From a virus (lineage: Duplodnaviria > Caudoviricetes): a DNA stretch of 64,000 nucleotides. Location: IMG/VR virus record IMGVR_UViG_3300028805_000070, positions 32,001 through 96,000 of that record; one strand, given 5' to 3'. Below the pieces are notes generated by a model. The model was not told the DNA's origin and searched no databases. It saw only the letters and a list, made by a program, of their open reading frames with translations. Shown in pieces: positions 1,509-43,886 of the stretch (positions are counted from its first letter, which is position 1; the number at the start of each line of letters is the position of its first letter). The position numbers were made by a program, and so were the translations under genes.

Positions 1509-2485
1509 CAAATGGCCCCGGCCGCCTAAAAAATTCCTTAATTTCTGGAAAATCCTAAAGCCATCGGAGATGGATATAAAATCCTAAGGAGGATGAATAG
1601 AATGGATAATCAGACGCTAAGCATTATGCCAAAACATGGTTTTGGCTTTGTGTATTGTTATACTTCTCCAAGTGGGAAGAAATACATAGGAAAAACAAAG
1701 ACTACTTTAAAAGCTAGAGCAAAAGATAATTGTAAAGGATATAAAGGTTGTACAGCATTTTATAATGCAATTCAAAAATATGGTTATGAAAATTTTGAGG
1801 TAGAGATATTAGAAGAAGTCCCATTAGAACGACTAATAGAAGCAGAAACACAGTATATTATTGATATGGATACAACCGACCCTAATAAAGGTTACAATAT
1901 CGTTACAAATTATCATGAATTTTTAGCTGCTTTTAACCGAATTCCCGTATATAGTTATGATGGTCAAACTGGTATTTTTATTGAAGGCTTTGAAAGTACA
2001 GCAGAGGCAGAACGAGTAATGCAAGTATATCGTGGCAGTATTAGAAGAGTTTTAAATATACCTAACCATCATGTACGAGGTCGTTTATGGAAAACAGAGA
2101 AATTTGATTCGGTTTCTGTAATTCCAAATAATATCTAGCCTAACACTAAACCAGTTTTTAGATATGATCCTGAAACTGGAGAGTTTTTACAAGCATACAG
2201 TTCTATTCGTGAAGCGGCACGTTAGACTGGTTTTGATAGAAAGACTATTAGCGATTAGGTAGCGTTAAAGGCTAAAAGAGAGCGGAAATATATCTTTAGA
2301 GATTTTAAAGTAGAGAATTTGTATAATGAAAGTTCAACGACTATCCCTAGTGGAGTAGATTCAAGTGAATCAAAACAGGAATAATAAGTTTATCTTATTA
2401 AGATATAGTCTAATCTTATAGGAAACTATAAGCAGTTCATAAGAGAACGCGCATATGCTCACGACTTATGCGGAATATTATTATG
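1509..2485 (+). mobile_element. Group I intron in tail tube gene
   Basis: 5' exon ends in U, intron ends in G; IGS GCCGCCU (1521-1527) pairs with exon GGGCGGU including the U-G pair; P10 GCCCCG pairs with exon 2 UGGGGC; core elements GTTCAACGACTA (~2332) and AAGATATAGTCT (~2400). Confidence 0.9.
1602..2384 (+). CDS. Intron-encoded GIY-YIG homing endonuclease with NUMOD1-like C-terminal repeats (TAG=Gln)
   Basis: GFVYCY...KYIGKT motif; AGGAGG SD before ATG 1602; read-through of 3 TAGs restores a second PVFRYD..GEFLQAYSSIREAAR repeat; TAA 2382-2384. Confidence 0.85.
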
Positions 2486-20281: not shown

Positions 20282-23200
20282 ATGAGTGACAATTCTAATA
20301 AAAATGTCCGCGATTACGAAGTCTCCATCTGGACCCTTCAGGATAGTTATTTAACTACCCTGAAGTGGTCTAAATCTAGTCATAAGGGACAAATATAGAA
20401 TCCTAAGATGACCTTAGCGGATGATGGAACCCAATCATTTTCTTTCAGCATCCCAATGTATTTATATGTTTAGGATGGAGACGTATTAGTTAAAAAGGAA
20501 AATCCCAATTGGTATGTTATAAAAGATAATAATTTATTAATAGAAAATATGCGAAAAATTAAGGTTATTTTTAATAAAACTTTTGGTACTGAAGACGAAA
20601 AGAAAGCCAATGGGGAACGCATATTTGAATTTTTAATTACTAAAGTAACTGAATAGCATGAGAGTGATAATTTAACCTGTGAAGTAACATGTGAAGGGCT
20701 GGCTTTTCATGAGTTAGGAAAGCAAGGATATAAAATCGAATTAAGTAGCGACGTATTCGTTAATAGAGATTATATTTATTATCATGGTGAGCCTGTCGCA
20801 GATACATATATAGTATCTGAACAAGCCAATCAAAAGCGTTCATATATTTGGTATGATAATTTACATTAGCCGCACGCTGAATGTCCAGAAGCAACATTAG
20901 ACTACTGGATGAATGATTTAGGAATTAAGCACGCGAGATACACATATAAAACAGTCAAAATTACAGATGAAAATAAAACCTGCTTAAATGGTTTAAATAT
21001 TACTGATAATCCTAAGGAATAGCGTACAGATCTGAACTCAACTGAATGGTATTATGATGTATAGATGAATTAGAGTTTTTATACAGATATGATTGAAGAT
21101 GGCGATGAACGTCGTAGTGATTAGATTTATGAAGAGCCTTATGTTAGTTCTTGGGATAAAAATTTATCCCCTCTAAAAATAGAAAGTGCTCGTGTAAAAT
21201 AGCGTATGATAGATGCTAGTGAAAGTAATTTATATAATCTTACATAGACCATTGCTGAAACTTTTGAAGTATTTTGCCGCTATGAATATCTTTACGATGA
21301 AAATTATTCAATTAAAGGACGTAGAATTATTTTTTATAATAACTTTAATGCCGAAGATGAGTAGGCATATTTTGAATATTTAACATATCCTTATACGTCA
21401 TCTGCTATCACGCGTGAATATGACAGTACCGATATTACTACAAAAATGTATGTGCGTCCAGAAACGGATGATAGTAATTTAACCGGATAGATTAGTATCA
21501 TTGATAGTCCCGCAAATCCAACTAAAGAAGATTATATAATGAATTTTGACTATTTAAAAGAAATCGCAACTATTTCACAAGAATAGTATGATGCTATTAC
21601 TGAATATAATCAAAAGATGAAATTATATAATGAAGGAACTTCCTATAGTTCAAATCCATTACCACGGGTTAATGGGAATTATACTGGCGAAGTACTTTCT
21701 CTTGATGAGAATTATAAACGCTATAATAATAGAATTTATAGTCAAGATGGCGATAATGATGCTTGGCGGCAATACGGTCTAATTACTTTACAAGAATAGC
21801 TAATTTCTAAAAAAAGTAGAAAGATTGAACTGGAAGCGAAACTTACAGTCGCTAGAAATTCAATTACCGAAGCGGAAGAACGTATCGCAGATGCTTCTTA
21901 GCATATAGGGAGCGGCGCAGAGAAGTCTCCTAATGCTTTTTCACGTGATAAAAATAATCCAATGGTAACTAGCCTTGTTACTTATGAGAATAAAAAAAAT
22001 AATAAAACTAAAACTTATTATAAAGTAACAAACTTTTCAGATACTGGTATTAATGCTAATAGTATTCATATGTATCGTGACTATGATGATAAAAAAAAGA
22101 AGTTTCCTGTATATAAACAAACAGGAACTGTGCCAGAATCGACTTTTTTTTCACAAGTTAATGAACAATTAAATTTTAATGAAGATCCAGCGCGGCAAGC
22201 AGTCGAGACCTATCGTCTATTAATTGCTCCTAATCAAACGGATTAGTAGTAGATACAATCTATTCTTCAAAGATATATTACTGAGTTAAGTAAATATAAT
22301 GAAAATAAGGAGTCTTTAAAAGAAGATACAGGTCTAATTTTTTCTAGTTAGAGTAAGATAAAAGAAACTGACACTGATAATTTATTTAATAAATATAACA
22401 TTCAATACGATGAGATTGGTTGGGCTTTATTTACAATTGGCTATGCCAAATTAAACGATTCTTTAAATGCTACTGCTACTGAAGGCGGATGGGCAAATAA
22501 AAAATTCTTTTCTATTATTGGCCCTAATGGTAAAACTGAATATAAATTAACCGCTCAAACAGATAAAAAAGGTAATCATTTTATTAAAAAGGATGATTGG
22601 AATGCTTGGATTGCTAGTCGTTTAGCTTGGTGTTTAGTAGCTTGTGATGGGATAGAACGAAGTAATATTTCATTAAAGAAAGGTTCTAATAGGTATGATG
22701 TTGTATGCACACTACCGTGGGCTAAATTAGCTTCATCGTCAGACTATATTAAAGCGACAGTTTCAGATAAAGGTAAGGCGCAATGGAGTTGTAGTCTTGG
22801 GAGCCGTATCGCAGAGAATAAAACCTCTTTTAAAGATTTGCGTAATAAGGCAACTACTGAGAGTTATTATGAATTATTAGAATCAGTTGGTATTCACCGT
22901 TATCCTAATGAAATTGTAGGATTCAATGTAAAAACTGATAATTACGGACATGCTACTAGTATTGTCGCTATTCCTTATAATGAAAATGAAAGCTAGTTAA
23001 CTAAAGTATATTTAACATATTTTTATAATCCAATAACTCACTACAAAGCTGTAAAAGATATGTGGATTAAACGATTAACTAAGTCATAGTCTGAAGAAAG
23101 AATGTACGTATATACATTAACATATTTAAATCGTGTAATTAATAACTTTGAAGAAGTTATTAGGATTATGCTGAAGGAAAAATTTGAAGATGTACGTAAG

Positions 23201-26200
23201 TTTGATCATCTGATGGGCCCAGCAATGCGCGAAAGTTATTGGCAGCCTGAAGATTATAGAGACTATGGCGATTATTATTCTGCCTAGTTAAATCGTATTT
23301 ATTTTAATCATAATAGTATAAAAATGCCAAAATGGCGTTTGAATAAGATTAGTGCAGGATTTTTCTGGGATAATAAGCCTTTTCCAGAAGAAGAAACTGG
23401 TTATTATGAATTAGGCGTAGATTAGAAAAAAGCTTATTATCCATGTATTGATTTAGAAGCCTTCTTTAAATCAGTCGAAGAGACAGCAATTGCAAATAAT
23501 GCTCGGCCGCCTGTCATGTATACGCCAAATATATCTAAAGATTTTACAGCTGAAGAGGGCATAGACCCTCCAAGTGCTACTGAAGAGGAATTAGATTAGT
23601 TGTTTGATTACGTACTAACTAAAGGAAACGGCAAAACTTATCAAGGCACTTCTGGCACTAGTTATTAGGATGATCAAGTATATCGAAGCAGCGCGCAGAC
23701 CGCTATAAATGAATTTATTGCTCATTTGCCTTATTTTACTTTTGCTTTTTATAATGACTCATTTGATAAGTAGAAGTATAGTGCAGAAAAAAAGAATTAT
23801 GTAACAGATAGAACATTATATGCTAAAAAAGATGCAAAGGGGAATATTGAATGGGCATATAAAATAAAAGCCATTAATACGATGAATATTGATGGTAATA
23901 GTAATACTGATAGCAATAAAACTGTTATATATACCGAAGTTCCAGTACAGCGAGAAGAGGATGACCATGTTTTTTATCGCGTGGGTTCTGTTACAGCTAA
24001 AGGTGTATTTGTAGAAAACGATGAAGCTTAGCTAGTTTTTGTCAGAAACAAGAAGACTAATGTAATTAAACCAGTTTTAATGTTAAAAGGGTTAGACACG
24101 CTTCCTGAGTCAACATTACATTATATTACAAAACAAAAGGTAAGCTATGATACGAAATCATTTTTAAATAATAGTTAGTATGCAATAAATACATATTATG
24201 AAATTCATCCTGGCGCTTAGCCAGAATTGGGATACTATACTGAAAATGGTTTTACACCGATAGGAACAGTGCAGAAAAAACATTGGCTTTCTTGGAACAG
24301 TGATAATGACTATGAACTAGTATATCCTCGTATAAAAATTAATTCTTTATAGTTAAAGCCAGAAACAGTGGCCTTATCATTGAACTGTCAAACATTGGTT
24401 TAGTATGAAGATTATTATGTATTTACGCGAGATTCAGATTATTTAATTACTTTAAAACCATATACTTTTTATTCTGAAAAAGGTTCACGTGAAGCTATTG
24501 CTAAAAAGATTGAAGAAAGCGGCGGTAATGTATCAGAACTATTAAAAACCGTATCAACAGTTAACAATGGTTATGAAGACGCTTCTTTTTCTGAAGGAAC
24601 TGACGCCATTCATGCTCGTGTAAGTGGTAGTCATTCTACCAGCGGTTCAGGCGCTACTGATGATGATATTACACCTTTAAATGAGGAAGAATGGAATAAC
24701 AATGGATATTTAGAGAAAATTAGTATCATGCGTGAATTAGGCTTCTATTCAAGTAAAATGAAGTCTGTTTATAAACCCTTACGCATTACTTATGCCATAT
24801 CTAATGGTGGAACAAGAACCTATTTAGATGCCTTAAAAGTATTAAAAGAAAATTCTAAACCTAAAGTTACTTATACTGTTACACCGAATATTTTAAATAC
24901 AAATTTAATCAATTAGCTATATAATAAGTTATGCCAGATAGTTTCTATTAATGACCATGAATTAAAATTTAATAATGTATTCGGTTATATTTCTTCTATG
25001 GACTTAGACTTAGATAAACCTTGGGAAGATACAATTGAAATAAAGAATTACACTAATAAGTTTGAAGATTTATTTAGTTCCATTACAGCATAGACAGAAG
25101 CAATGAAAAAGAATTCCGGCATTTTAGCAAGTTTTGGCGCTGGGAATTTACCTGTTACAATTGTTTAGTCAGTAGAAGATACAATGACGGATGCACTTTA
25201 GAATTCTCCTATTATAAATAATTATTTAATGGAAGAATTTGATAGCGCGCAAGTCGTGAAAGATACATTGTATGATATCGTAGATTAGACTAATGTAATA
25301 TTAGGTAGTAGTACGGCCGCGATAGATGAGCTTACTACTTTAAACAATTTAAATGCAACTATTTTAGGTTCCTTAGTAAAAAATATTGAAGCACTTACTG
25401 CGCCTCAAGTTTTTAATGGAGATCCTAGCACAATTATTGGCTATAAGGCCGGTGATATCTGTTATGGAAGTGATGGCAAAGCATATATTGCCACCTCATC
25501 GGCAGGTTTCATGCCGTTCTTCGACGGCACGGTATCTAAAATTACTGGTGCAAGTGTAGATTGGGATGCTGACAAGGGTACTGTTGATATTCATGGAGCG
25601 ACTTCTATTGATATAAAAAGTGGAAATGATATTGATATTGCCGCAGACGCGAATATTTATATTATTGGTAATAAGTCAGTTAATATTGGCGGCGCAACAA
25701 TTAATATTGGTAGTGCGACAATTGATGATGGCACGAGCACGGGTGAAGAGGTCGTAGGTGGAATTAATATTGTTTCTTCTCATGTAGATTAGAAGAATAA
25801 GGCGAATAGTAGCTTGTCAGGTGTTTGGATTAATCCAAAGTCTATTTCAATGTTAAGCTCTAATATTGTAATGGAAGGTAGCAAACGTATTGTAATGAGC
25901 GCGTCAAAAGGCACGAACGTAGCAACCTCTGGAATTTAGATTGATGTTGATCAAGGAATTTGGATTGGCTCAGGAAAAGGTGTTAATATATATTCTGGGG
26001 CAGCATTTAAATTGACAAGTGATAATAGCGATGATGATGAAAATTAGAAATTGGTACTAAATGGTACACCAGGTACTTCATTATCATTAAATGGAAAGCG
26101 TGCACTTATAGGCACGTCTAATGATACTGCTGCGACAGTAATACGTATAAGCTCTGATTAGATGGTTATTGGTTCAGCAAAAGGATTCGGATTAACTGAT

Positions 26201-27877
26201 ATAAGCGGTGATAATGTCGATATTCCTGTTCCTTAGGCTAAACAAAATGCTAACATAATAGGCGCTGTCTTTTCTTCTTAGAATATAGGATTTGCTACCA
26301 GAAAAGGAACTTATCGTAATTTAATCGCAATGGATGAAACTGGTATTACACTAGGCCAAGCTCGGGTGAGTGGAAATGCTTATGCTTTACATGGCAGTGA
26401 CGAGACTTCAGAATCTATGGTAAATGATAACATTGAGGGCTCGTATGTTAAAATTGGTGTTGATGGTATTAAATTAGGCTCATTAGCAAATATGTATATT
26501 AATACTAATAATTTTAAATTACAGACCAAAGCTGATGAATCTACAGGAGAGCATACCATTCTTGCTGTAGGGACTCATTTTAATAATGTGTCTGGTAGTA
26601 CTGTTAATAACATTTTTGGCGCGGATACTGAGAATTCTGTGAAAGCGGGATTAGTATTTAATGCGAATGGTTTATTTATTAAAGGAACTGTATATGCAGA
26701 TGCGGGACAGTTTACAGGGACGGTCTATGCCACAAATGGCAGCTTTAGTGGTTCTATTTTTGCAGCGCAAGCGAGTAAAATTGCCGGTTTCTATATTGGA
26801 AATACATATATGGCTTCTATATTTAATAATAACAGTAATGATTATCATAAAAATAATTTAAGCAGTACTTATAGAGGAGTATATATTGGAACAGATGGAA
26901 TTAATATTAGTAGTAATTATGATTCTAACAGTTCTACACCTGAGAATACTATCTATGGGGATATTTTATTTAAAATAGATATTCCACAACGTATTTTAAC
27001 TTTTGGAAACTACCAAAAAACTTCAAAGCCAACTTTATTAACTGTAAATTAGGGTACTTCAACAGTTTCATTACATGGTATTTTTATATTAGACCCAGAC
27101 AAAGTGGCAGTTGCAGATGGGTATGCCTCTTTATCGATTCACTCCGATGGCGATCCATATTGTATATATACATCCGGTGCATATAGCAGATCAACAGACC
27201 ACTATCATATAGAAGATTATACTTTTGGTATTAATCATATTGGAGAATTATTTTGTTCTACATTAACTACAGGTGGAATAAGCGCATATTCTTTAAGTGT
27301 CCGGTCTGCTTCTTTTTATATTGATAATGTGTATGGGTTAAGATGTTTTAATGATAAATTTAGTGTTGATGTAAATGGTAATATTACTGCTAGTGATATT
27401 ACTGTTAGTAATATTACCGCTAATGCTATTACTGCTAATGATAATCTTATCGTAGGAGACGTATCTAATCTTGAAATGTCACCTAGTTCCGGAAACTCCT
27501 CTAGTTCCGGAAGCTCATCTAGTTCTGGGAACACCTCTAGTTTTACCAATGGATCGATTATTGCCGAAACAACAATTGCTGCAGGGGCATCAATTGCTGC
27601 AGGAGCATCCATTCGCGCGGGAACTTCAATTCGTGCAGGAACTTCTATAGCTTGCAATAATTTTTTATATATTAATGGGACAGATACTACTGGTACTAAT
27701 ACAACAAATATTGCAAGAATTGTTTTTGGAAGTAATGATACTGATTATCCTCGTCTCGTATCAAGAAAACGTGGTGGGAAATGGTAGTTGGTTTGGTTAT
27801 ACGCCTCTGGCAAAGAAACTATTCTCGCTTCAGAAGATGATTCTCAAACTACTTGGCAACCAAGGTCGTCAACCTAA
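20282..27877 (+). CDS. Tal/tail-tip host-specificity protein (~2,531 aa, TAG=Gln)
   Basis: AAGGAGG SD; seven track ORFs in the same frame end in TAG; N-terminal Tal-like region (FSFSIPMY, ITTKMYV), coiled coil, beta-rich C-terminus; TAA 27875-27877. Confidence 0.85.
27483..27650 (+). repeat. 18-nt coding repeats (SSSG x3; IAAGAS/IRAGTS x4)
   Basis: ctagttccggaaactcct/ctagttccggaagctcat/ctagttctgggaacacct; attgctgcaggggcatca etc. Confidence 0.8.
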
Positions 27878-27944: not shown

Positions 27945-28337
27945 TTATTCTTCATCAAACTCAATAAAGTTCTCAAGCTGCGCCATTTCAGCTGGCGTAA
28001 ACTCAACCTCACCAATATCATCCATCTTAATCTTATTCGCGCTAATTTCCACATTCGTATCAAGCAGCTCGCGCAACTCTCTACTAAATGCTTCCATTTG
28101 CTCTGCGGGAATCCTTACATTACCATTTTCCTCGGTCTTAAGTTCTCCATTCTCATCCTTCTCACCGTATTTCTTAATTAGTTCCATACGAGTCTCATTA
28201 AAGGACTGAATTTCCGCATCAGCACTTTTTAGAATCTTACCAACTGCATAAGCGCAGCGTGCCTTTAATTGTTTCTGACTTAATCCTTTAAGCCCCTCAG
28301 TCGCATTGACTAATTCTTCTAGCTTTACATTAATCAT
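27945..28337 (-). CDS. Hypothetical acidic helical protein
   Basis: Track ORF; likely start MINVKL at 28337 in ATGA overlap with upstream stop. Confidence 0.75.
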   Translation of the reverse strand: MINVKLEELVNATEGLKGLSQKQLKARCAYAVGKILKSADAEIQSFNETRMELIKKYGEKDENGELKTEENGNVRIPAEQMEAFSRELRELLDTNVEISANKIKMDDIGEVEFTPAEMAQLENFIEFDEE

Positions 28338-29083
28338 ATATCTTCTCCCCAAGTGCTATGCACTCTTATCTTATTACAAAAGTATTTACCAATACAAATA
28401 GCATCTGCTTCATCTTCAGTACACTGTAAATTATACCAAATTTTAACTTTGGCTTGCGCCGCCTTCTTCCGCGCTTCTCGATGCTAATCACCGTCGCCAA
28501 CGCCGCAGTAGCTGCGCCATTCGCTTGGATAAACTAAGTCGCTATCTATACAGGCTTCAAATAGCGTGTCTAATATTACACCCTATAAATTAGCTAATGT
28601 CTAAAATGTTTTAACTTGTGCCTAAGCCGCGGATGCGCCATACTTTTGTAGCTATATATTTTCTATGCCCACAAAATCCGGTTCCCATTCTTTCAATGCG
28701 GCTTTAAGCCAATTTTTAACCTAATTAATTCTTTCTGTGGCTGGTAATGTCGCGCTAGTTTTAAAAGTACCGTAACCGACTAATGCTTTATTATCATAAA
28801 TGGAATAACCAGTTACTCCAGTTGCGGCATCTAATGCTAGCACTCTTAGCGTATCGTCTCCTTTAGGCGGTACCTTATTTTTTTTAACCTTATATGGGTC
28901 ACCAGCCATACAAATATCGCATATTTTATGCTTGCGCCAGTACTCAAATGTTTGCTACTGCTAATGTCCTTGCGGACATTGCATATCTAATGGTGTCTTT
29001 AAATTCTTATAAGTTTCACTTATAAGTTTCCATCCTTCGGCTTCTAAGGCATTCTATACAGTATATATATTAATACTTGCCAT
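28334..29083 (-). CDS. ruvC: RuvC-like Holliday junction resolvase with N-terminal Zn-ribbon (249 aa, TAG=Gln)
   Basis: VLALDAATGVTGYSI, VGIENIQ and EDEADAICIG catalytic motifs come into one frame only with TAG read-through; TAATG and ATGA overlaps at the ends. Confidence 0.85.
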
Positions 29084-30098: not shown

Positions 30099-30459
30099 CT
30101 TCTTCATTCTCCTTTGCTTTTTCTTCGTTTAGTTTTCTTAGCTTTTGAATCAAATCTATATAATTAAGCTTTGTGGCGGTTTCATTTATCTCATCAATCT
30201 GAGACTTCTAAGCCACTTTAGCTTTATTACCTTTATTTTTCTTTGCGAGTGCTCGCCGTTGCGCCCGATTTAACTTAACGCCACCGTTGATTTTTGTTAC
30301 AGTAAAATCTGTAATCTTCTTCATAATTTCATCATCAGTTTCGGCGCCAACTAGTGCTTCGGCTTCTGCATAAGTTATACCTTGAATCTCTGCGAAGCGC
30401 TTAATTAAATCATTTGTTTGCGGCAACTCGATATTGCTTTTAGCTTCTGCATATTCCAT
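30070..30459 (-). CDS. Hypothetical protein (129 aa with TAG read-through; 83 aa if TAG stops)
   Basis: Frame stays open past TAG 30208-30210 to TGA 30070, filling the gap to the next gene. Confidence 0.65.
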
Positions 30460-30944
30460 TATAAATCTACCTCTTTCAACTTAGCAGGTTCCTTTGATGG
30501 CATCGTTTCACGTTCATTCCAAAGAGTGATATACCATCGAGTTGGGTCGCCTTCGCACTGTAATTTATGCTCAATCTTAAAACGATTAAAATTAATTTCA
30601 GGCTCAATAAAAGCTTCATCTTTTCCCGTTTCGGCACTGCGCCAGAAATTATCTGCTTGTGTTGTCCATCTCAACCAATGGTGCCGAGTAAGTAGCGCAT
30701 AAACCTTAGGCGATAATAATGACATTTCTAACACTATTTTCCATCCAGTCTTAGAGTCATATTTTTCATAATATTGAGTAAGCTGGTCAAAATAAACTTC
30801 GTGTTTTTCTTTACTATCCCACAGTCTATCATAAACTGTTAATAGTATATTTGGAATTTCTTTCTTTCCATACCAATTTTCGCGCGGATATTTCTGAATA
30901 GGATGCTCATCGTTTTCTATGTCAAGTCTATTAAAATATTCCAT
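30459..30944 (-). CDS. Hypothetical protein
   Basis: Track ORF, tightly packed between neighbours. Confidence 0.7.
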   Translation of the reverse strand: MEYFNRLDIENDEHPIQKYPRENWYGKKEIPNILLTVYDRLWDSKEKHEVYFDQLTQYYEKYDSKTGWKIVLEMSLLSPKVYALLTRHHWLRWTTQADNFWRSAETGKDEAFIEPEINFNRFKIEHKLQCEGDPTRWYITLWNERETMPSKEPAKLKEVDL

Positions 30945-31979
30945 TTATCCTCCCGCGTTACGGTTATAACCGAACGTTTGTGTATCAAAGAATTCAATAT
31001 AGTATTTTTCAAGCTCGGATAGCTTATCCTTATCGCAATAAGTAATTACTTCAATTGACCAGTTCCAGAATCCTGTCTTTAATATTTCGTGATGAACCGC
31101 TTGGTCTGCGATGCTTTTAATTCCAATCGAGGACTTAAAATGGTCTGCTATTCGTTTCTTTATATCAGTACTTTTTCCAATATAAGCCTTGCCGCTATCC
31201 AAATTTGTTAATTTGTAAATCCCTGGCTCTGGCTTAATTTCTATACGTTTAAAAGTATCATCCAAATTAGGTTTAACATACTCTGCCCAAACTAGCTTTG
31301 ATATAATATCTGGATGCTAAACCTTTGCGGCGACAGTAGTAAGCAAAAATTCAATATCCTCTCGATATTCTTCAGGCAACTATATGGTATAGAATAATTT
31401 TGCCTATTTATCCATTTCATACTAAAGTAGCGGTTTGCGTAAACTTAAAAAGCGTTCACGCTGCTGTTCTTCGGCAAGCTAATATTCCTTAACTTTAGCT
31501 TGGGCTTCTTCAATTTGCTCAACCATCCATTTCTTGGCTTCTTCGGCCTACTTATCGCATTCTTTTAAAGTCTTATCTAACTCAGATTGCAAAACTGATT
31601 TCTTTTCATTAAATGTTTCGTCCAATGACTCTTGGCGGCGTTGCCGCTATTCATCCATTAAAGAATCCAATTCAGTCATCTTGTCATTTACTAGATGATT
31701 ATATTCATCACGTGCATCTGATAAACTAGTTTTTGCACTGTCTAATGAATTATATATATCAGTTAATTTTTGTTGCTCTGAATTAACTCTGAGTTGTATA
31801 TCCATTAATTTATAGCGATACTATTCTAGCGCTTCTTCATCAGAACTTAATTCTTTTTTAAGTTTAGCTGCCTGTTCATGATATTCATCTAATAGCTATG
31901 TATCAATAGATTGCTTTTGATAAAGTTTATACCCCAGAAATCCGATAGTAACTAAGCATAAAATTAAAACTACAACCAT
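30945..31979 (-). CDS. Membrane-anchored coiled-coil GIY-YIG nuclease (344 aa, TAG=Gln)
   Basis: AAGGTG SD; N-terminal TM (MVVVLILCLVTIGFLGY), ~170-aa coiled coil, C-terminal GIYKLTN..AYIGKS..EKYYI..GYN. Confidence 0.8.
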
Positions 31980-32006
31980 ATCATCACCTTTTTCTCTTGA
32001 TACTTA

Positions 32007-35743: not shown

Positions 35744-36822
35744 CGCATCCATTTTCCTCCTTCCTGTAAACGTTGTTTTGTCTATTTAAATAAAATATCC
35801 TACTTGGGATATTTATCAACTAGCATTTTTACTTCTTCTTTTGCTGCTTTTATTTCTTCTTGTGTAGTCCTTTTAGGAAAATACTCGTAAAAAGTAGTAT
35901 TTTCGCGCCGAGAACTACAACTCCAAGCGGCAATTGTTTTTGATAAGTTAGCGAGTGGGTCATAGCATCCCAATGTGGGCTTTTCATACTTTAATCGTAT
36001 TGGTACTTTATAAGCCCAGAAACTATATAATAAATTAATTTTGTAAATAAAATTTTTATAATAATCCATTTGGTAATAATAAGAGCCGCCAATTGATAGG
36101 TAAATTGCTGAAGTTGGCAAAATTAGCGCGAGCAGGCGCTTCTAATAATTATGCATCATATAATCTACTTCAGAGAGTGGAATATTCAGGTCTAAGAAAG
36201 CATCATTACTTTTAGAAATAATATCGCTTTCTCGCGCGAAAAAGAAATCAGATAACTTATAATAGTGTGCGGGATGAATAAAATTAATAGAAGAAGGCTT
36301 ATGCTCTTTAATATCTTCTATTACTTCTTGCCATCCATCCTAGAAAAAATCTCTATCATAAATATACATACGCTTACGTGCCCTAATGGGCGGTATTGGC
36401 AGTTCCTTTTCTCCCGCAAACCTGCGATAATAGCTATCATCTAAAATATGTTCTATATTTTTCTCTGTTTCGCCAGCCTAATATTTTTCTTTTAGTAAGT
36501 TGCTATATATTCCTGGCCGCGGTAAGGTATAATCTATTAATTCATTTTCAAAAGGCACATATATTTTATTTGTAAAGGCGGAGCCGCCATATATTATATT
36601 GGATGCACGCTTGATAGCTTCTGGCACTTCAATACACGCGTCATTTTCGCTGAATACATACACTTTTTCATAGCCACCAAATTCTGTTTCTTCTAAATTA
36701 ATTAAGCGGCAATACCTATTTTCTTCTCGCTTATAATATTCCGCGAGCTTCATAATCTCTAAATTAGGAGGCGGAAGAGACTTCTAGGCCATCTAAAAAT
36801 TTAAATCAATTAGCCCTATCAT
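35740..36822 (-). CDS. Hypothetical protein with N-terminus resembling B12-binding/radical-SAM-like proteins (360 aa, TAG=Gln)
   Basis: Track ORFs 36478..36753 and 35800..36120 are one frame; ATGA overlaps at both ends; MIGLID..PNLEIMKLAEYYK..YGGSAF. Confidence 0.75.
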
Positions 36823-39800
36823 TCTTCCACCTCCATTCTTTGAGTCTGGAATTCCAGTACTCCATCTTCATCTATATTTGTAATCTTTGAAATCACCGGA
36901 TAAAACGAATCTTTGCGCTTTTTAGGTACGAAGTCTTGTCCTCTACGAATACCTTGTACCATCAACAATGTACCGCGCGAAAACCAACTCTTTTCAATGA
37001 CGTGTTTGATACCGTCATCTCTCTTCTGAGAAAGTTGCTTATCATATAATGCGTATTGATTCTTATAAACCTTTACATTTACAACTCCTGTCGGTGTCAA
37101 CAATGTAACCGTGTTCTTTAACTTATTCTTATCAATTACCGTACCAATAATTCTATGAAGTCTGAATACTCTTACTTCATTACCATCCTTTCCTGGAAAC
37201 GTATACTCAACTTCTGGTTCTTCTGGTAAAGTAAAGAAATCATCATAATTATGAGCTGCGGCCGCCAATTCGTGTTCGTGGCTATAAAAAGATACAGATT
37301 CCATTTCCCAATGAGAAATAGTTCCAGCGGCATATTTATCAAACATTTCTTGATATAGGCTATCATTTAGCTTTTTTAATACTTCATCTTTATGCCCTTT
37401 TAAATATACTCGCATTGGTTCCATTGCCTTCTTATATACATTATCCCACCGAGTTTGTGGAATTTCTATACCATTATCAATTAAGTCGGCGCTGAAATTA
37501 TTTCCAATGAAGTTCACAGCGGCTTCATTTAACTCATAATTATCACCATTCTTACAAGTCTTTAGATATCTATTAAATAAGAACAGCTTCTGGTAAAACT
37601 TCATATCTTCAGGAATCAAACCTTTATTAATTAACATCTGCATATTCTGCAACGTTAACCGTTCTTTCCTGTCTGCAATCATTCCAATATAATCCGCCAT
37701 AATCTTCTCGCGTGGTTCGTTCATCAACGAATCAAATGCCCCGCATTTAATCAAATTAGACATTTGAATCTTATTAACTTTTACACGTTCTAGAAAATCA
37801 TTCATTGACTTAAATGGACGTTGCGCCATGATATCTTTAATAATAGAAGTTGAAAGCCGCGTAATACCTCTTAACCCATACAAAATGACATTATCTTTCA
37901 CCACCGGAGTGAAAGTAAAAGAAGAATTATTAATATCGGGCGGCGAAACCTTAATACCATAAGTACTAAACTTTCCAATTGCTGATGCGACTTTACCATA
38001 ATCTACCGATTTGGTCTTTTCCTTTTTCTTATCTTCTTTTTCGCCCTCTATTACTTCATTTTCTTCTTCCCATTCTTCCAACTCTTCTTCCGGATCTTCA
38101 TCGGGCGCCGATTCAACTATAATTGAAGCTTCACCTTCATCATCATACTCAATCGTTTGTGCGCCGCCGCTATCTACTATTAAGTTTGCTGTATTCCAGA
38201 AAATAATTGGTTCAAACCGTGCAAGATTCATTTCTTGTAGAGCGACCATAGAATAGGCGTATGTGTGAGATGCGTTAAAGCCATAACCACGACTTAGCGC
38301 GACCTCGACATTCCATACATATGAACAGAACTTCTCGCTGAGATGTTTTTCCTTTACTCGCGCGAAAAACTCAGTTGTTAATTGCTCATACTCTTTTGGA
38401 TTCTTTTTCGCAATACTTTTTCTCAAACGGTCTGCCCATTGTAAGTCCCAGCCGCCGCATTCTGGCAATTGAACCAACTGCATAAACTGTTCTTGTGTAA
38501 TTGACATTCCATCTGAAATATCCAGTTCCCTGTGAAGAATCGCTCGTTCATCATCCGTCAATCCATATTGAATCATTTCTCGTTCCCAATCATTAGGATT
38601 GAAACGGAATCTTGCATATTTATCCAATGGACTTTCGGCGCCCTTTTCAGTCGCCATTAGACGAATAACTGAATTCAAAACTGCTAATTCGTCTACTGTT
38701 CTTGGATGTGTTAATGCAATCCCTCTGGTTCCAGATTGCTGTTCCATCTGAAACAAACTAACAATTTCGTGATGTTGAATCATATCCCACATCTTTTTAT
38801 CATCACGATTTATTTTATACACATTAAGAACTGACTCATAAGTTTCGCGCAATGTTGCCTTTTTTTCTACATATCCTTGCTCTACCAATAAATCAAGACA
38901 AGTATGAATTTTATCCGCGGCTTCAACACTCAGCAAGTCCATTTTAATTTCAGAAACATCTTCCAAATCATGTAATTCAAACTGAGTAATTATTGTGCCA
39001 TCGGGCGCGCGCATCAGAGCACTAGAAGCAGTGAAATCTTCATCTTTAAAAACGACTCCTCCCGCGTGAATACCAACACCGCAAATCAATCCTTCAATAC
39101 GACTCGCAACTTCCCATAACTGTGGATACTTACTAATCTCATTAATAAAAGTCTGATTTGGTTCAATCCCCGCTTCTTCATCACCATAATACATTTGTTT
39201 CAATGTATATGATTGACCACGTTCAGCACTAATAAGATTTGCAATATAGGATGCTTCATCAACATCAATTCCCAATCCTCGTGCCGCCGTTAAAATTGCA
39301 GAACGAGATTTTTCGGTTCTAAAAGTTGCTACATTTGAGACTCGATTTTCGCCATATACTTTTCTCAAATATTCCAATACTTGCCCTCGACGCAGCCCTT
39401 CAATATCCACATCGATATCGAGAACAGAAACACGGGCAGGATTAAGGAAACGCCAAGGATACATCTTAGTCTTTTCCCGAAGGCAATTTATTTGTATGAT
39501 ATCCAGCGCATACAGAAGAACAAATCCACCACCGGAACCTCGCGCCGGGAGAACAATACTCCCGGCATTCCAACATTCATCTATAATCTTTTGTAGATTT
39601 AAGAAATATGCTGACCATTGCGCTTTATTAACCTGAGAAGACTCCCAAGTCATTTCAAGACATTCATTTAATGCATCAAATGCATCTACATTTTGCAAAT
39701 CTTCATGTTTTTTGATACCCTCAATTAGAGCCATTACTAATGTTCTATCTGCTTTATACTCTGACTTAATAAAATGCACCAAAGCAGGCATCTTATGAAT

Positions 39801-40794
39801 ATAAAAATCTAATTCTTGACTATCAATTTCTGAAGGAAATTCACGCCACGGAAGATTTGGAATTTTCAGTGGTTTCAAAATACTAAAATCTTCACACCTA
39901 TCCTTAATCTCTTTAATTGCTGAGTATGCGGCTTGAAGTTCATCTTCATTTAAATATGGAAAGAAACTTCTAATCTCTTCATCCGACATCATATACGTTG
40001 TGGCATAGAATGAACGGACTTCACGCTCACCATCCTGAGAATTAAGGAATGCTTCGTGAACTGCCGCATCTTCTGGCCGCCCATAATGGCTATCAGTTGT
40101 GATTATATATTTAATTCCAAGCTCTTTACTAATTTGCAATAGATGTTTATTTACAAATACCTGTTCCTTTCCATTTGAAGGTTGCATCTCCAAATAGAAA
40201 TTTCCTTTACCAAAAATATCTTCAATATATAAACACCAACGTTTTGCTGTTTCATAATATTCTTCATTATCAGTATCCATATATTGAAGAAGAAACTTAT
40301 CTAATTGCGAACCTAAACAAGCACTACTTGCAATCAAATGTCCTTGATTTGGTTTTACAATTTCTTTTAAGTCCGAATAGTAAGTTGGACGTCGCCGCAT
40401 TTTTCTACTCATATATGAGCGATTCCAGGCCCGAGTTGAAAGTTCGCAAATTTGATGATAGCCTTCCAAATCTCGCGCCAAAAGGATAAAGTGGAAATAC
40501 TTATCTTTCGTTCTATCGAAATTTTTTGCGTTTAAACCATTACGAGTTAAGTAAATCTCGTTACCACGAATTAATTTAAAGTCTGGATGGTCTTTTTTTA
40601 TTTTCTTATAATATTTTTCAGCCTTGATATAACTTGATATAGTTTCATGGTCTGTGATTGCTACGCATTCGTGTCCGAGCTGTATTGCAAGATTAAACAA
40701 ATCTTCAATACGATTTGTGCTATCTCGTAGGGTTTCATTACTAAACATTGTGTGGTTCCTAATTATGAAGACTTCCAGGATAAGTCATCTTCAT
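36819..40794 (-). CDS. dnaE: DNA polymerase III alpha (DnaE-type) with discontinuous 5' end; putative join(40794..40762, 40754..36819)
   Basis: PHP (ITDHE, TTDSHY), RGSGGG, LDIDVD, HAGG, KMDLL, YGFNASH; AAGGAGGT SD and ATG 40794 encode MKMTYPGSLHN in a frame offset by 7 nt from HTMFSN. Confidence 0.93.
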
Positions 40795-41513
40795 ATAGGT
40801 ACCACCTCCTTTCGTGCTTCATTACGCACATTTTTATTATAATTATGTAAATATTTCCAAGTTCTGCATCTATTTATATCATACAATATATTTAAACTAA
40901 TGTCAAGATCTCGTGACAATTGAGCCAATGAACGAGTATCATTTTTTAATAATTCAATAATTTCTCTTGCTTGATTTTCTGTAATTTTATTTGTACCTAA
41001 TTCACCATTATGAGTATTACGCTGTTCATTTCGCAATAATAATGATTCTTGACGAATATTCTTAACATAATTATGTAGGTGACCCCAAGTTCTACATCTA
41101 TTAATAAAATCAATTGTATTTATATGTACATTAAATTGTTCTGCAATTTCACGATTGTTTAATTTACATTCTTCTAATAGATGAATAATTTGTAAAACCT
41201 CTTTATCATTTAATTTGGCTTGAATATTATTTTCTCCTCGATAACAGTTTCCTCCCTTAATTAAATTATATCCATTTTGAATTGAATCATAATATTCAAT
41301 CCAATACTTTTCTCGCTCATCCAATAATTCAACTGGACATTCTTCAATAATAGAGAAAGTGAAATTATCGCGTTCATTGCGTAGAGCATCATCTATTTTA
41401 GAATAAGGTGAAGGATTATAAAGATGATCTTGCTTTCGTTTTGAAATGTTTGTACTTTGTCCTATATATTTTTTATGAGTTTCTTTATGTTCAAACATAT
41501 AAATACCTATCAT
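40791..41513 (-). CDS. Free-standing GIY-YIG homing endonuclease with two C-terminal HTH-like repeats
   Basis: GIYMF..KYIGQS..EREKYWI..GYN; duplicated INRCRTW motif; stop overlaps the dnaE ATG. Confidence 0.88.
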   Translation of the reverse strand: MIGIYMFEHKETHKKYIGQSTNISKRKQDHLYNPSPYSKIDDALRNERDNFTFSIIEECPVELLDEREKYWIEYYDSIQNGYNLIKGGNCYRGENNIQAKLNDKEVLQIIHLLEECKLNNREIAEQFNVHINTIDFINRCRTWGHLHNYVKNIRQESLLLRNEQRNTHNGELGTNKITENQAREIIELLKNDTRSLAQLSRDLDISLNILYDINRCRTWKYLHNYNKNVRNEARKEVVPI

Positions 41514-41539
41514 ATTTATTCACCTCCCTATCTATATCA

Positions 41540-41568
41540 ATTATATCATAAATTTTATTAAAAGTCAA
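41540..41568 (-). promoter_or_regulatory. Sigma-A/70 promoter
   Basis: TTGACT-17 nt-TATAAT with TG extended -10. Confidence 0.85.
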
Positions 41569-41963
41569 AAGTAATCTGGGAATACCTTCATTAGTTTCTC
41601 ATAAGCTGATTCTTTCTTTAAACTTGGACAATAATCATACTGAATATCATCTACTTCATTCCATACTTGCGCTTGATTACGGGTTAAGTCTAACTCAGTC
41701 GCAATTACTAGCCTATCTTGATAAGATGCTCCATCATAGTACCAGTATCCATATTCATTCCAAAGCATATAATATTCAGTACGTTCCTTATTTACAACAT
41801 AGTAAACATCTGGCGCCAAATTCGGATTATCATTTTCACGCATATATTCAAGAAAACACTTATCTTGTGTATTAACTTCCAATTTAAGTTCTGGCGTGCG
41901 AGTACCCATGAATACATGGCCTTGCGCTATCTGAGGGTACATCTTATAAATTTCAAAAATCAT
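41565..41963 (-). CDS. Hypothetical protein
   Basis: Track ORF with ATGA coupling upstream. Confidence 0.7.
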   Translation of the reverse strand: MIFEIYKMYPQIAQGHVFMGTRTPELKLEVNTQDKCFLEYMRENDNPNLAPDVYYVVNKERTEYYMLWNEYGYWYYDGASYQDRLVIATELDLTRNQAQVWNEVDDIQYDYCPSLKKESAYEKLMKVFPDYF

Positions 41964-42124
41964 TTTATATTATCTAGCCATCCCATCTGCCACATACGGA
42001 ATAGGATATTATCTATTACAGCCATTTCTTCCGGACTATCTTCTATATTCGTGCCTTCAATTAGTTTTTCTCGACACATTTGAATTAATTCTTCTCTGTT
42101 ATCATCGCACGTATTAAAATTCAT
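41960..42124 (-). CDS. Small hypothetical protein (54 aa)
   Basis: MNFNTCDDNREEL...; fills gap, overlaps both neighbours. Confidence 0.55.
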   Translation of the reverse strand: MNFNTCDDNREELIQMCREKLIEGTNIEDSPEEMAVIDNILFRMWQMGWLDNIK

Positions 42125-43886
42125 ATTTACTCTCATCCTCTTTCAATTCATAATCATCAATAAATACTTGAACCGAAGTGCGCCCATTGAACGTATTAAG
42201 GTTTGCGCGCCCATATATAGTAAGCATCTTTGTTCTATCTTCCATTACTTGCTCTACAAAATCTGAATCTTTAAAGCGTACATAGTCGATATTGTTGTAT
42301 GAAATTTTCATACTGTCCTTATTTGCGCCCATAGGCATCACACTCATAAGCGGAATATTTTCTACTACAATTCGTACTTCATCAATATGATTACCAAAGT
42401 ATTCTGGATGAGAGGCAAGCGCAGCGATAAGTTCATCGTTATAATCAGATGCTTTTAAAATATAATCTACAAGATAACAATTCTCAAAGTCTGATGAACT
42501 TAGGTGCTTATTAGCATAATCAATAAGAGAATCAACTCTATTTCCATTTAAGCCCCAGCCACAAGCATTATCATGCCCAGCGGTATAATTAAGCAATTTG
42601 CTATCTTCCAAGAACTTTTTAAAGCTCGGTAAGCCTGCGAAATTCCCGTCTGAACGAATACTTCCTTGAATTTCATTATCATTATTGCGGCGGCCAATCA
42701 TTACGGGCTTATGGTATTTAGAAACCACGTTCATAGCAATGAGGCCAGTCAGTTCTTGTGGGATATTATCAGAATTATCTAGCTCAACTAAGATGATATT
42801 ATTCGCATCCAAACAATCTTTTTGAATCTTAAAATCTACTATTCCAAGCGCTTGTTCCTTTAACCGGTCTTGGCGCGCTTTTGCGTTTTTGCCTACGCGT
42901 GCAGTCTGCTCTGCGGCAGTCTCAGTATCACCAGGTTTCGCGCCACGTTTTGTGCTCTTCATTTCACGCCTAGGTTCAATAAAACAATAGAACATTGTTT
43001 CTTTTTCTTCCATAGTGCCCACGCGAGTAATTGCATTAATAAGAGGAGCAATATAAAAAGCAATATCAATAGGAGTTAATCCATTATAGGGGAAAATAGC
43101 TTTTTCTTTTAAAGAGAAAGCCTGCGCTTCAATTAAAGTTTTAAATCCTTCATTCTGAATATATGATAATCCTTCCATCATAATATAATTAGTTTCGGTA
43201 TCTGTTCTATCCATAACGTCAGCAATTTCTCCTAATGCCGCGAGATCCATATAATTCTGAGCTTGGTCTATTCCTAAAATATCATCCAATACTTCACAAA
43301 ACTTATATACTACTCCCGCGCCACACAAAGATTTATTAGAATACTCTGGTGAGAGTTGATTATTTACTATAATGGTATTTGGATAGTCAGATATAATAGG
43401 ATTTCCTTGTGTATCATATTCCTGCTCGTGATGGTCTAGACAAATGACATCCATTCCTAGTTCGCCGCAGCGCCGATGTTCATCTTTATCATAACTGCTT
43501 GAATCTGGGCATAGTATTAAATCATAGTCTGGATTGTCTTCTAGCCACTCAATCTTATCATCCAAACCGTGCTGTTTATGGTTATGTACTGTAAAATGCA
43601 AATCAGCATTTGGGAAAATATGTTTTATATAGAGCCATAAGATTGCGCTGCTTGTAAATCCATCAGCATCGCAATCTACGTTGAAAAGAATAGAACTTCC
43701 TTTGCGTAAATGATATAGTAGTCGTTCTGCCGCCGCATCAATATTTTTTAATAAATGTGGATTAAGTTCACAAGCAGATGTTGGATACATAAAATTCTCA
43801 ATATCTTGAACGCCGCGGTCACGAAGAACATCTTCTAGCGCGCCTTCCGGGTCGGTCGTGTATTTCTTTCTTAGCTTATACTTCAT
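42114..43886 (-). CDS. recJ: RecJ-like DHH ssDNA exonuclease
   Basis: DCDADG, CPD, LDHH, LCGAGV, GSIRS and AGHDNACG motifs. Confidence 0.92.
   Translation of the reverse strand: MKYKLRKKYTTDPEGALEDVLRDRGVQDIENFMYPTSACELNPHLLKNIDAAAERLLYHLRKGSSILFNVDCDADGFTSSAILWLYIKHIFPNADLHFTVHNHKQHGLDDKIEWLEDNPDYDLILCPDSSSYDKDEHRRCGELGMDVICLDHHEQEYDTQGNPIISDYPNTIIVNNQLSPEYSNKSLCGAGVVYKFCEVLDDILGIDQAQNYMDLAALGEIADVMDRTDTETNYIMMEGLSYIQNEGFKTLIEAQAFSLKEKAIFPYNGLTPIDIAFYIAPLINAITRVGTMEEKETMFYCFIEPRREMKSTKRGAKPGDTETAAEQTARVGKNAKARQDRLKEQALGIVDFKIQKDCLDANNIILVELDNSDNIPQELTGLIAMNVVSKYHKPVMIGRRNNDNEIQGSIRSDGNFAGLPSFKKFLEDSKLLNYTAGHDNACGWGLNGNRVDSLIDYANKHLSSSDFENCYLVDYILKASDYNDELIAALASHPEYFGNHIDEVRIVVENIPLMSVMPMGANKDSMKISYNNIDYVRFKDSDFVEQVMEDRTKMLTIYGRANLNTFNGRTSVQVFIDDYELKEDESKYEF

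Follow-up and report, generated by a model that had tools for sequence, protein, structure and literature searches.

A short coding gap in the dnaE gene of a rumen phage, its probable bypass by ribosomes and its link to a mobile GIY-YIG homing endonuclease cassette

A total of 64,000 nucleotides (nt) of DNA from an uncultured rumen phage (Caudoviricetes; IMG/VR record IMGVR_UViG_3300028805_000070, positions 32,001 to 96,000; hereafter the window) were used for the analysis, which concerns the 5' end of dnaE, a DNA polymerase gene whose reading frame is broken there by the seven bases TAGGAAC. The source record comprises 133 kilobases (kb) and is rated 75% complete. Our analysis suggests that TAGGAAC is an untranslated coding gap that is skipped by a short translational bypass, a reading that we place at a probability of about 0.7. 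Comparison with 24 relatives revealed 14 other gap sequences in addition to that of the window. The gap forms the 3' edge of a mobile cassette that consists of a GIY-YIG homing endonuclease gene, a replacement leader for dnaE and the gap itself, and its bypass is best read as an independent miniature of the T4 gene 60/MobA system.

The coding gap in dnaE and in its relatives

All genes relevant to the break are carried on the minus strand of the window, and the coordinates given for this region refer to that strand. A strong Shine-Dalgarno (SD) sequence, AAGGAGGT (40804..40811), located inside the 3' end of the nuclease gene and kept in nuclease-carrying relatives, precedes a leader of 11 codons, MKMTYPGSLHN (40762..40794). 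The leader starts at ATG 40794-40792, continues with AAG ATG ACT TAT CCT GGA AGT CTT CAT AAT and holds the first histidine of the PHP HxH motif; the TGA stop of the nuclease open reading frame (ORF) overlaps its ATGA. The last leader codon, AAT (40764-40762), is the proposed take-off codon. It is followed by the coding gap of 7 nt (40755..40761), made up of TAG (40761-40759), G (40758) and the proposed landing triplet AAC (40757-40755). The main dnaE frame of 1311 codons (36819..40754) resumes at CAC (40754-40752), the second histidine of HxH, and runs through ACA to ATG 40748-40746, from which an ORF of 1309 codons extends to 36819. An earlier reading made from the letters of this stretch (the sequence-only reading) had described the same layout of SD sequence, ATG 40794, 11-codon leader, TAG and 7-nt insert, and re-reading of the sequence found it accurate. 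Its statement that no in-frame start reaches the first histidine also holds, since TGA 40787-40785 closes the polymerase frame upstream, and the translation was checked for its statement that read-through of TAG gives a dead-end peptide: MKMTYPGSLHN-X-EPHNV-X (QEPHNVQ with TAG as Q) is followed by TAA. Skipping of the seven bases restores GSLHNHT, as had been noted, and about 115 relatives read GSLHNHT uninterrupted.

Analysis of the main frame revealed Pfam matches to PF02811, PF07733, PF17657 and PF14579, representing the PHP domain, polymerase core, fingers and HhH, and a protein search placed the polymerase near YorL of SPbeta (37% identity). The PHP profile is matched from position 6 in the post-gap piece, from position 10 in the protein starting at ATG 40748 and from position 2 in L002, a gapless relative whose DnaE is 96% identical. 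HxH is the first metal-binding motif of PHP domains. Because of this, and because CHNHT of L002 aligns with LHQHT at residues 10-14 of Thermus aquaticus DnaE (2HPI) with the first histidine as His 11, the first histidine of the window's motif can be placed upstream of the break, and HxH is complete only when the leader is joined to the main frame. Gapped and gapless proteins alike show no variation in the ligand columns of the PHP domain (D, H, E, H, C, D and H), which confirms the earlier observation that the other metal ligands are intact. Among gapped alleles the leader codons for tyrosine, proline and glycine vary at third positions only, and changes in leader length comprise whole codons. 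ORFs of about 1310 codons are intact after the gap in six loci, the window included, and intact long dnaE ORFs in diverged gapped loci include those of genomes rated 100% complete. No second DNA polymerase of any family was found in the 133-kb record (75% complete), where dnaE is the sole polymerase detected. Judged from its domains, the protein is a replicative polymerase of the DnaE type (YorL-like), with PHP, core, fingers, HhH and ligands present, the HxH motif being complete once leader and main frame are joined.

The DnaE N-terminus was used for a first survey, which identified 51 related viral loci. Among them 46 read CAY AAY CAY (M-S-K-Y-P-G-S-L-H-N-H-T...) unbroken, from their own TATAAT-type promoter, and four share the interrupted arrangement of the window. 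When contigs of viruses and metagenomes were surveyed twice more on a wider scale (profile A1), 133 distinct junctions were obtained, of which about 115 are gapless and 18 gapped. Since most homologous junctions (46/51; about 115/133) run on uninterrupted, the seven bases are extra and not a matter of chance. The break is spanned with 0 differences and 0 gaps by X1 (2221 nt) and X4 (323 nt), contigs of sheep rumen RNA libraries, and equally by X2, a DNA contig from the probable source sample; X6, a bovine contig from a separate study, retains the nuclease gene, leader and gap without any indel. Another RNA-library contig carries an 8-nt gap variant of a relative. In all, contigs with the identical junction come from four runs, which cover three samples and three studies, and gaps occur in dozens of independent IMG/VR and metagenome assemblies. 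The assembly error that the sequence-only reading had kept among its alternatives is excluded by the independent sheep and bovine assemblies and by the RNA-library contigs, and an artefact of assembly or sequencing is regarded as already refuted. A blastn search of the junction against a cultured-phage collection gave no match.

The RNA-library contigs also bear on removal of the gap from the mRNA before translation, whether as a mini-intron or by editing. The variable, non-triplet lengths of the gaps would suit a spliced segment, but contigs of two gap types retain the gap and the joined form was not seen in them. No Rfam family matches positions 40300-42100 (E up to 1), and an in-frame stop at the 5' edge and a codon-matching triplet at the 3' edge would be unnecessary for splicing. 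We know of no bacterial mechanism that excises 4-12 nt. Removal at the RNA level is considered very improbable on these grounds, and the 7-nt mini-intron suggested earlier found no support. A group I intron with a homing endonuclease ORF was also rejected, given the same Rfam result and the retention of the gap in RNA-library contigs.

A total of 25 gapped leaders were collected: from both DnaE surveys, from a pattern scan after filtering and from a search that took the nuclease protein as its starting point. The pattern scan used a 15-mer, returned mostly chance matches and was biased to TAG and AGTCTTCAT; it was used after filtering and was then superseded by the protein-based surveys. At the same junction the 25 leaders carry 15 gap sequences: TAGC with 4 nt; TGAAAC with 6 nt; TAGGAAC and TAGGAGC with 7 nt; TAGGGAAC, TAGGGAGC, TAGAGAAT, TAGTGAAT and TGAGGAAC with 8 nt; TGAGGAAAC with 9 nt; TAGGGTGAGC with 10 nt; TAGGGTTGAAC with 11 nt; and TAGTTAATTCAT, TAGTTGATTCAT and TAGTTTATTCAT with 12 nt. 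All 25 gaps open with a stop codon in the leader frame, TAG in 21 loci and TGA in four loci, and the TGA alleles contradict the earlier view of TAG as the required take-off stop. No consistent pattern was found among gapped alleles for the base following the stop codon. Each gap is followed by precisely the codon that comes next in the gapless protein, and the last triplet of the gap equals or resembles the codon before the stop: AAT is matched by AAC, AAT or AGC, AAC by AAC or AGC, and CAT by CAT. In the CAT class, represented by three loci, the break is located one codon earlier, the gap has 12 nt and AAY CAY comes next. The first A-R-Y triplet after take-off is the landing triplet in 17/18 alleles tested. 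Sister gaps differ by single-base indels, for example TAGGAAC and TAGGGAAC or TGAGGAAC and TGAGGAAAC, hence the frame change needed is 0, +1 or +2 depending on the allele.

Two further loci are recorded here. The gapped allele L090:324-392 (gap TAGC) has ACG where all other leaders have ATG, GTG or TTG and its branch in the DnaE tree is very long; the copy may be decaying. L304 (2450 region) has a gapless dnaE with a leader resembling the cassette leader (...GAGAAGATGACCTAT...AGTCTTCACAAT), which represents either the kind of lineage that gave the cassette leader or a precise loss of the gap after invasion.

Translation across the gap

The comparison of gapped alleles is the basis on which we infer a hop by the ribosome. 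Ribosomes would initiate at ATG 40794, whether directly or by coupling to the termination of nuclease translation in the overlapping ATGA. After 11 codons the P site would contain peptidyl-tRNA-Asn on AAU and the A site would contain UAG; with termination slow, the anticodon would release and the mRNA would slide 7 nt forward. The tRNA would re-pair at the first matching triplet, AAC, and decoding would restart at CAC, giving DnaE with an intact ...GSLHNHT... and, on trypsin digestion, the junction peptide MTYPGSLHNHTMFSNETLR. Three features of the bypass class are present in the sequences, namely free gap length, matched or near-matched codons and a stop directly after take-off (25/25). The geometry of take-off, stop and landing that the sequence-only reading proposed for the window is thus borne out comparatively across the 25 gapped leaders.

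Because the gap lengths are 4 and 6-12 nt, no single type of frameshift fits them, and a skip to the codon before the resume codon fits all. The gap might instead be partly translated, by +1 shifting for gaps of 4, 7 and 10 nt, by +2 or -1 shifting for 8 and 11 nt and by stop read-through for 6, 9 and 12 nt, leaving one to four extra residues within HxH. A stop codon in the A site is a classical trigger of +1 shifting, and the gaps are mostly purine-rich and SD-like. The last gap triplet would in that case always encode asparagine, serine or histidine, which is another possible cause of its conservation. Partial translation is nevertheless unlikely, as at least three mechanisms would be needed in one cassette family and the single-base indels between sister gaps would each switch the mechanism required. 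It would also place variable inserts in a metal-binding motif whose spacing is fixed in about 115 relatives, and re-pairing of tRNA-Asn from AAU to AUU (+1) or to UAA (-1) would be poor. Two specific candidates were rejected. A prfB-type +1 frameshift is incompatible with required shifts of +4 to +12, with the poor AAU to AUU re-pairing and with the absence of an SD sequence 3 nt upstream of take-off, and a quadruplet-decoding tRNA cannot explain gaps of 6, 8, 9, 10 and 11 nt.

Translation might also terminate at the stop, with DnaE made separately from ATG 40748 or from non-canonical starts; the protein would then lack the first histidine, its PHP domain would be crippled and the leader would be a leftover. 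In the window AGGA is located 8 nt before ATG 40748, and the exonuclease activity of the PHP domain is dispensable in some DnaE enzymes. However, comparison of 13 gapped loci (11 distinct alleles) revealed a start codon just past the gap in the window only; elsewhere the next in-frame ATG, GTG or TTG lies 24-396 nt downstream and is not conserved. The leader shows coding constraint, its frame is served by a strong SD sequence, and the other PHP ligands are invariant, all of which speaks against separate synthesis. Re-initiation at ATG 40748, which the sequence-only reading had listed, is excluded as a general solution, and we judge separate synthesis from any start to be quite unlikely.

Folding analysis predicted a hairpin in the leader (40752..40805) with a minimum free energy of -23.4 kcal/mol (z -4.2). 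The inner stem, formed by UAUGAAGAU (40795-40787) and GUCUUCAUA (40772-40764), terminates at the take-off codon, and outer pairings are predicted between CCUA (40799-40796) and UAGG (40761-40758) and between GUGGU (40805-40801) and ACCAC (40756-40752). An inner stem of 7-10 base pairs, formed by the start codon plus 4-7 following bases and by a segment ending at the first histidine codon, is predicted in 25/25 gapped leaders, and CAT-type leaders retain it with an exchange of G-C for A-U and a different leucine codon. The mean folding energy is -19.2 kcal/mol (z -2.7) for gapped leaders versus -8.9 kcal/mol (z -0.5) for gapless leaders, and gapped leaders have 11-17 codons (the starts of four loci were corrected by eye) versus a mode of 10 in gapless leaders (p = 6e-10, computed on automatic start calls); both contrasts are uncorrected for the common descent of cassette leaders. 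The motif AGTCTTCAT occurs before take-off in all gapped leaders of the DnaE surveys versus 23/114 gapless leaders. RNAalifold on a MAFFT alignment recovered the invariant inner stem only and no covariation. The outer stems are not claimed, as a swap test gave -19.0 kcal/mol for cognate and -17.9 kcal/mol for non-cognate combinations. The hairpin is specific to gapped alleles and may help bypass: its 3' arm would be held in the paused ribosome, and refolding behind the ribosome may bias the slide forward. A similar role in forward movement has been proposed for the 5' stem-loop of gene 60 (bioRxiv 10.1101/2024.12.09.627546).

Several observations weigh against bypass. The RNA evidence consists of assembled contigs, which may hold DNA carry-over and leave room for a minor processed form. 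Stop-hops in synthetic E. coli constructs, attributed to Weiss et al. in 1987, were reportedly inefficient. The leader, with 11-17 residues, is too short for a tunnel-spanning nascent-peptide signal like that of gene 60, and a take-off stem-loop cannot fit within a gap of 4-12 nt. At the level of single alleles, L277 has AGT at +4 before its productive AAT, and four gap types can land only on AGC, where tRNA-Asn needs a G-U pair at the middle position. The landing triplets are also part of the predicted pairing with the SD-proximal spacer, and their conservation may have this second cause. Finally, the gapped leaders share cassette descent; the 25 are not independent, and only about three take-off/landing classes are.

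The stop codon at the break belongs to a phage in which TAG is a sense codon in the plus-strand late genes. The late-gene block (window 1-27877, plus strand) requires TAG as a residue; its ORFs at 4283-18553 (4756 codons) and 20282-27877 (2531 codons) contain 137 and 44 TAGs, respectively, and matches to PHROG profiles cover nearly the full length of two late ORFs that contain 6 and 8 TAGs. Apart from the TAG at the break itself, dnaE is without TAG. The sequence-only reading had TAG decoded as glutamine. The sense-codon part of this claim stands on the TAG-rich late ORFs and the glutamine part is weak, since the 73 residues found opposite TAG in one virion protein included 12 K, 11 Q and 9 I. 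Neither the window nor the 133-kb record (75% complete) yielded a suppressor or UAG-decoding tRNA. Twenty tRNA genes are clustered in the record (118505-132001, outside the window), and one of these encodes tRNA-Asn(GUU), the proposed hopping tRNA.

Hairpin, stop and matched triplet might together form a minimal portable bypass module that acts inside the first 11-17 codons, needs no long nascent-peptide signal and, in amber-recoded phages like this one, also senses the genetic code, although we regard this extension of the bypass reading as doubtful. The hairpin would bury the start codon, so that a second ribosome loads only while the first pauses one footprint downstream. Late in infection, a UAG-decoding tRNA would cause the stop to be read through into the dead-end frame and polymerase synthesis would end; because read-through ends at TAA, such a tRNA would divert ribosomes from DnaE. 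The polymerase shut-off by a code switch that was proposed earlier is speculative. The four TGA alleles, the mostly gapless relatives and the failure to find a suppressor tRNA in the 75% complete record give no sign of selection for it, and since most relatives are without a gap, control by the code switch cannot be a general need of these phages.

The GIY-YIG cassette and its surroundings

The gene upstream of dnaE (40791..41513) encodes a free-standing GIY-YIG homing endonuclease of 240 amino acids (PF01541, E 8e-11; PHROG homing endonuclease families). Its C-terminus gave a weak match to HTH_23, with 21.4 bits against the Pfam gathering cut-off of 24.6 bits and not in one single stretch, and it is from this sub-threshold match only that a putative DNA-binding region is suggested there. 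The gene is preceded by a sigma-70-type promoter (41540..41568), consisting of TTGACT (41568-41563), a 17-nt spacer and TATAAT (41545-41540), and, after the promoter, by the SD sequence GGGAGGTG (41528-41521). These elements had been taken for the nuclease's own promoter. Alignment A3 corrected this view, as promoter and SD sequence align with the block directly before dnaE in the gapless relatives L002 and L003 and represent the ancestral dnaE promoter/SD block. Going by this alignment, the left border of the cassette is the native dnaE promoter and SD sequence, which would now drive the nuclease gene.

Comparison of X6 with the window revealed identity over 40745-40799, only five differences in the nuclease gene and differences at 29/95 positions in 40650-40744. 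Since this identity stops just past the gap, the right border is located no more than about 10 nt after the gap. The same mosaic was found between the window and nuclease-carrying loci, where leader and gap are 89-91% identical and the next 150-900 nt only 72-79%; against L002 the mosaic is reversed, with 64% for leader and gap and 84-89% downstream. For the dnaE sequence behind cassettes with such similar leaders, identities of 73-76% were obtained. Mapped on a 130-row DnaE tree, the gap (17 rows) requires 16 changes, as many as when labels are shuffled, and at least 12 of these changes are forced by well-supported branches. Every gapped allele has a close gapless sister on this tree. Gapped alleles are thus scattered horizontally on the tree, and the cassette has by all appearances entered many dnaE lineages.

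A search with the single nuclease protein recovered one orthologue only, and an alignment-based search was needed. An orthologous nuclease gene (49-69% identity) is present at 8/18 gapped and 0/115 gapless junctions (Fisher 2e-8, not phylogeny-corrected). When the nuclease was taken as the starting point, a gapped dnaE followed at every orthologous locus whose downstream sequence could be read (10/10), and orthologues of the nuclease occur only at the dnaE start, before gapped alleles. Loss of the nuclease is also evident: two gapped alleles keep a 3' remnant, and in at least six the gene is gone, the neighbour about 100-150 nt upstream being recJ or a helicase-like gene. The co-occurrence of insert and nuclease suggested by the sequence-only reading therefore holds in that all orthologous nuclease genes precede a gapped dnaE, and fails in that about half of the gapped alleles are without an intact nuclease. 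Its broader claim, that the insert belongs to a mobile nuclease cassette, agrees with the tree scatter, the identity mosaic and the nuclease association. Judged by the example of MobA/gene 60, the gap would most likely spoil the nuclease target, so that carriers escape cutting.

Recent and scattered alleles, each with a near-identical gapless sister, might be expected if the gapped genes were non-functional or barely functional selfish scars, kept by homing drive and by complementation from gapless co-infecting phages or from the host replicase. The frequent loss of the nuclease gene and the presence of gapless relatives in the same samples point in the same direction. Against such scars, long dnaE ORFs are intact behind the gap in diverged loci, including the 100%-complete genomes, and gap-only alleles persist after nuclease loss. 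Drift is seen in the interior of the gap, with conservation of leader, stop, matched triplet and hairpin, and the record, as far as it is complete (75%), yielded no second polymerase. On balance, scars of this kind are distinctly improbable, and a gap skipped by bypass in a working polymerase gene is preferred.

Related nucleases were also found near dnaE genes without a gap. Distant GIY-YIG genes (25-45% identity) lie between recJ and dnaE in some gapless phages, and since such genes also precede gapless dnaE, the association with the gap is specific to the nuclease lineage of the window. At L229:1825-2469, L334 and L346, the start of a gapless dnaE directly adjoins a GIY-YIG gene of distant relationship (31-37% identity), which makes the dnaE 5' end a recurrent landing site of this nuclease superfamily, gap or no gap. 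In the TGA-type cassettes L393:1903-1990 and L394, a full promoter (TTGACA, 17 nt, TATAAT) is located between nuclease gene and leader, which do not overlap; because this promoter separates both genes, nuclease and polymerase expression are uncoupled in this sub-lineage. Distant nuclease homologues in L395, L404, L412-L414, L422, L452 and L453 are followed by a conserved GC-rich motif (...CCTGTAWCGACTATC...) that is structured-looking and unrelated to dnaE, and this motif may be the 3' part of group I introns.

The gene order on the minus strand of the window is a RecJ-like gene (42114-43886), a small ORF, the promoter-like site with its SD sequence, the GIY-YIG ORF and dnaE. A gene for a RuvC-like Holliday junction resolvase (28334-29083, minus strand) contains nine TAG codons despite its position in a largely TAG-free minus-strand block. 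A further ORF resembling GIY-YIG homing endonucleases (1593-2384, plus strand; 3 TAGs) occurs among the late genes. The TAG-rich ORF 30945-31979 (minus strand) has a GIY-YIG domain at its C-terminal end and is followed by a separate ORF of 161 amino acids (30459-30944); the two may represent a broken or split nuclease gene. The hosts of this phage and its relatives are probably rumen Firmicutes.

Comparison with known bypass systems

To our knowledge, bypassing for gene expression is documented only for T4 gene 60 and its close homologues, besides mitochondrial byp elements and a few untested candidates. The 50-nt bypass of T4 gene 60 is said to lie within a MobA homing-endonuclease element, a description ascribed to Bonocora et al. 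in 2011. Full-text literature searches returned reviews and work on gene 60; they revealed neither a short bypass described for phage dnaE nor reports of micro-gaps linked to GIY-YIG genes.

The MobA/gene 60 element comprises a nuclease, a homologous replacement region and the bypass; it ends at the landing codon, and its nuclease is often lost (bioRxiv 10.1101/2022.08.31.505936, Manning and Atkins). The dnaE cassette is similar in combining a selfish nuclease, an element-borne coding replacement and a non-coding gap, with the end of the element at or just after the landing codon. In both systems the stop directly follows take-off and the take-off and landing codons are matched, insertion into near-identical gapless relatives is repeated, and the gap stays when the nuclease is decayed or lost. 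An upstream stem-loop that is implicated in forward movement is a further similarity to gene 60 (bioRxiv 10.1101/2024.12.09.627546). The two systems differ in the nuclease, which belongs to GIY-YIG (PF01541) here and to HNH in MobA, and in the target, which is the 5' end of a YorL-like dnaE (PF07733) here and the topoisomerase large subunit in T4. The gap has 4-12 nt instead of 50 nt, with no room for a take-off stem-loop, and the nascent chain has 11-17 residues instead of a nascent-peptide signal of about 46 residues. Unlike the T4 topoisomerase gene, dnaE is not split into two proteins, the hosts are probably rumen Firmicutes and at least this phage reads TAG as sense.

In synthetic E. coli stop-hops, a stop lies between matched codons, and nine bases are read as one residue (Weiss et al. 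1987, summarised in Atkins et al. 2016, PMC5009743). The allele L310 (AAC TGA AAC) has an identical geometry and the other alleles a close one, and in both cases a P-site tRNA would re-pair a few bases further downstream with a stop codon in the A site. Whereas the synthetic constructs were engineered and of low efficiency, the dnaE gap is natural, conserved and located in the record's only detected DNA polymerase gene. According to the 2016 review (PMC5009743), an in-frame stop-hop is not known from nature, and gene 60 has long been presumed to have shorter counterparts.

The byp elements of Magnusiomyces capitatus mitochondria comprise 27-55 nt at 81 sites, with an unused codon in the A site and no nuclease gene (Lang et al. 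2014, summarised in PMC5009743). Like the dnaE gaps they are short, mobile, frame-breaking inserts that are skipped in translation, which for dnaE is what we infer, and their codon matching is likewise not always perfect. They differ from the single site in dnaE, where a bacterial-type ribosome, an A-site stop codon and a GIY-YIG partner are involved. For the terminase genes of Streptomyces phage Hau3 and prophage StrepC.1, a likely short bypass keyed to the rare UUA codon has been cited (PMC5009743). These cases resemble the dnaE gap in being short coding gaps in a phage gene, proposed from sequence alone and with an SD-like element nearby; in contrast, a nuclease cassette is reported for the dnaE gap only, and far fewer variants are known for the terminase genes.

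If the bypass reading is true, the cassette family constitutes a natural short counterpart of gene 60, with 15 gap variants of 4-12 nt at one site in three take-off/landing classes. It would provide a natural mutational series on the minimal signals for sliding and re-pairing of bacterial ribosomes, with a gap-specific hairpin and a chain too short for a tunnel signal. Polymerases of this kind will be labelled as truncated or as pseudogenes by gene callers. Together with T4 gene 60/MobA, the cassette would be the second independent case of a homing endonuclease that carries a translational 'patch', here allowing it to sit inside a conserved polymerase motif.

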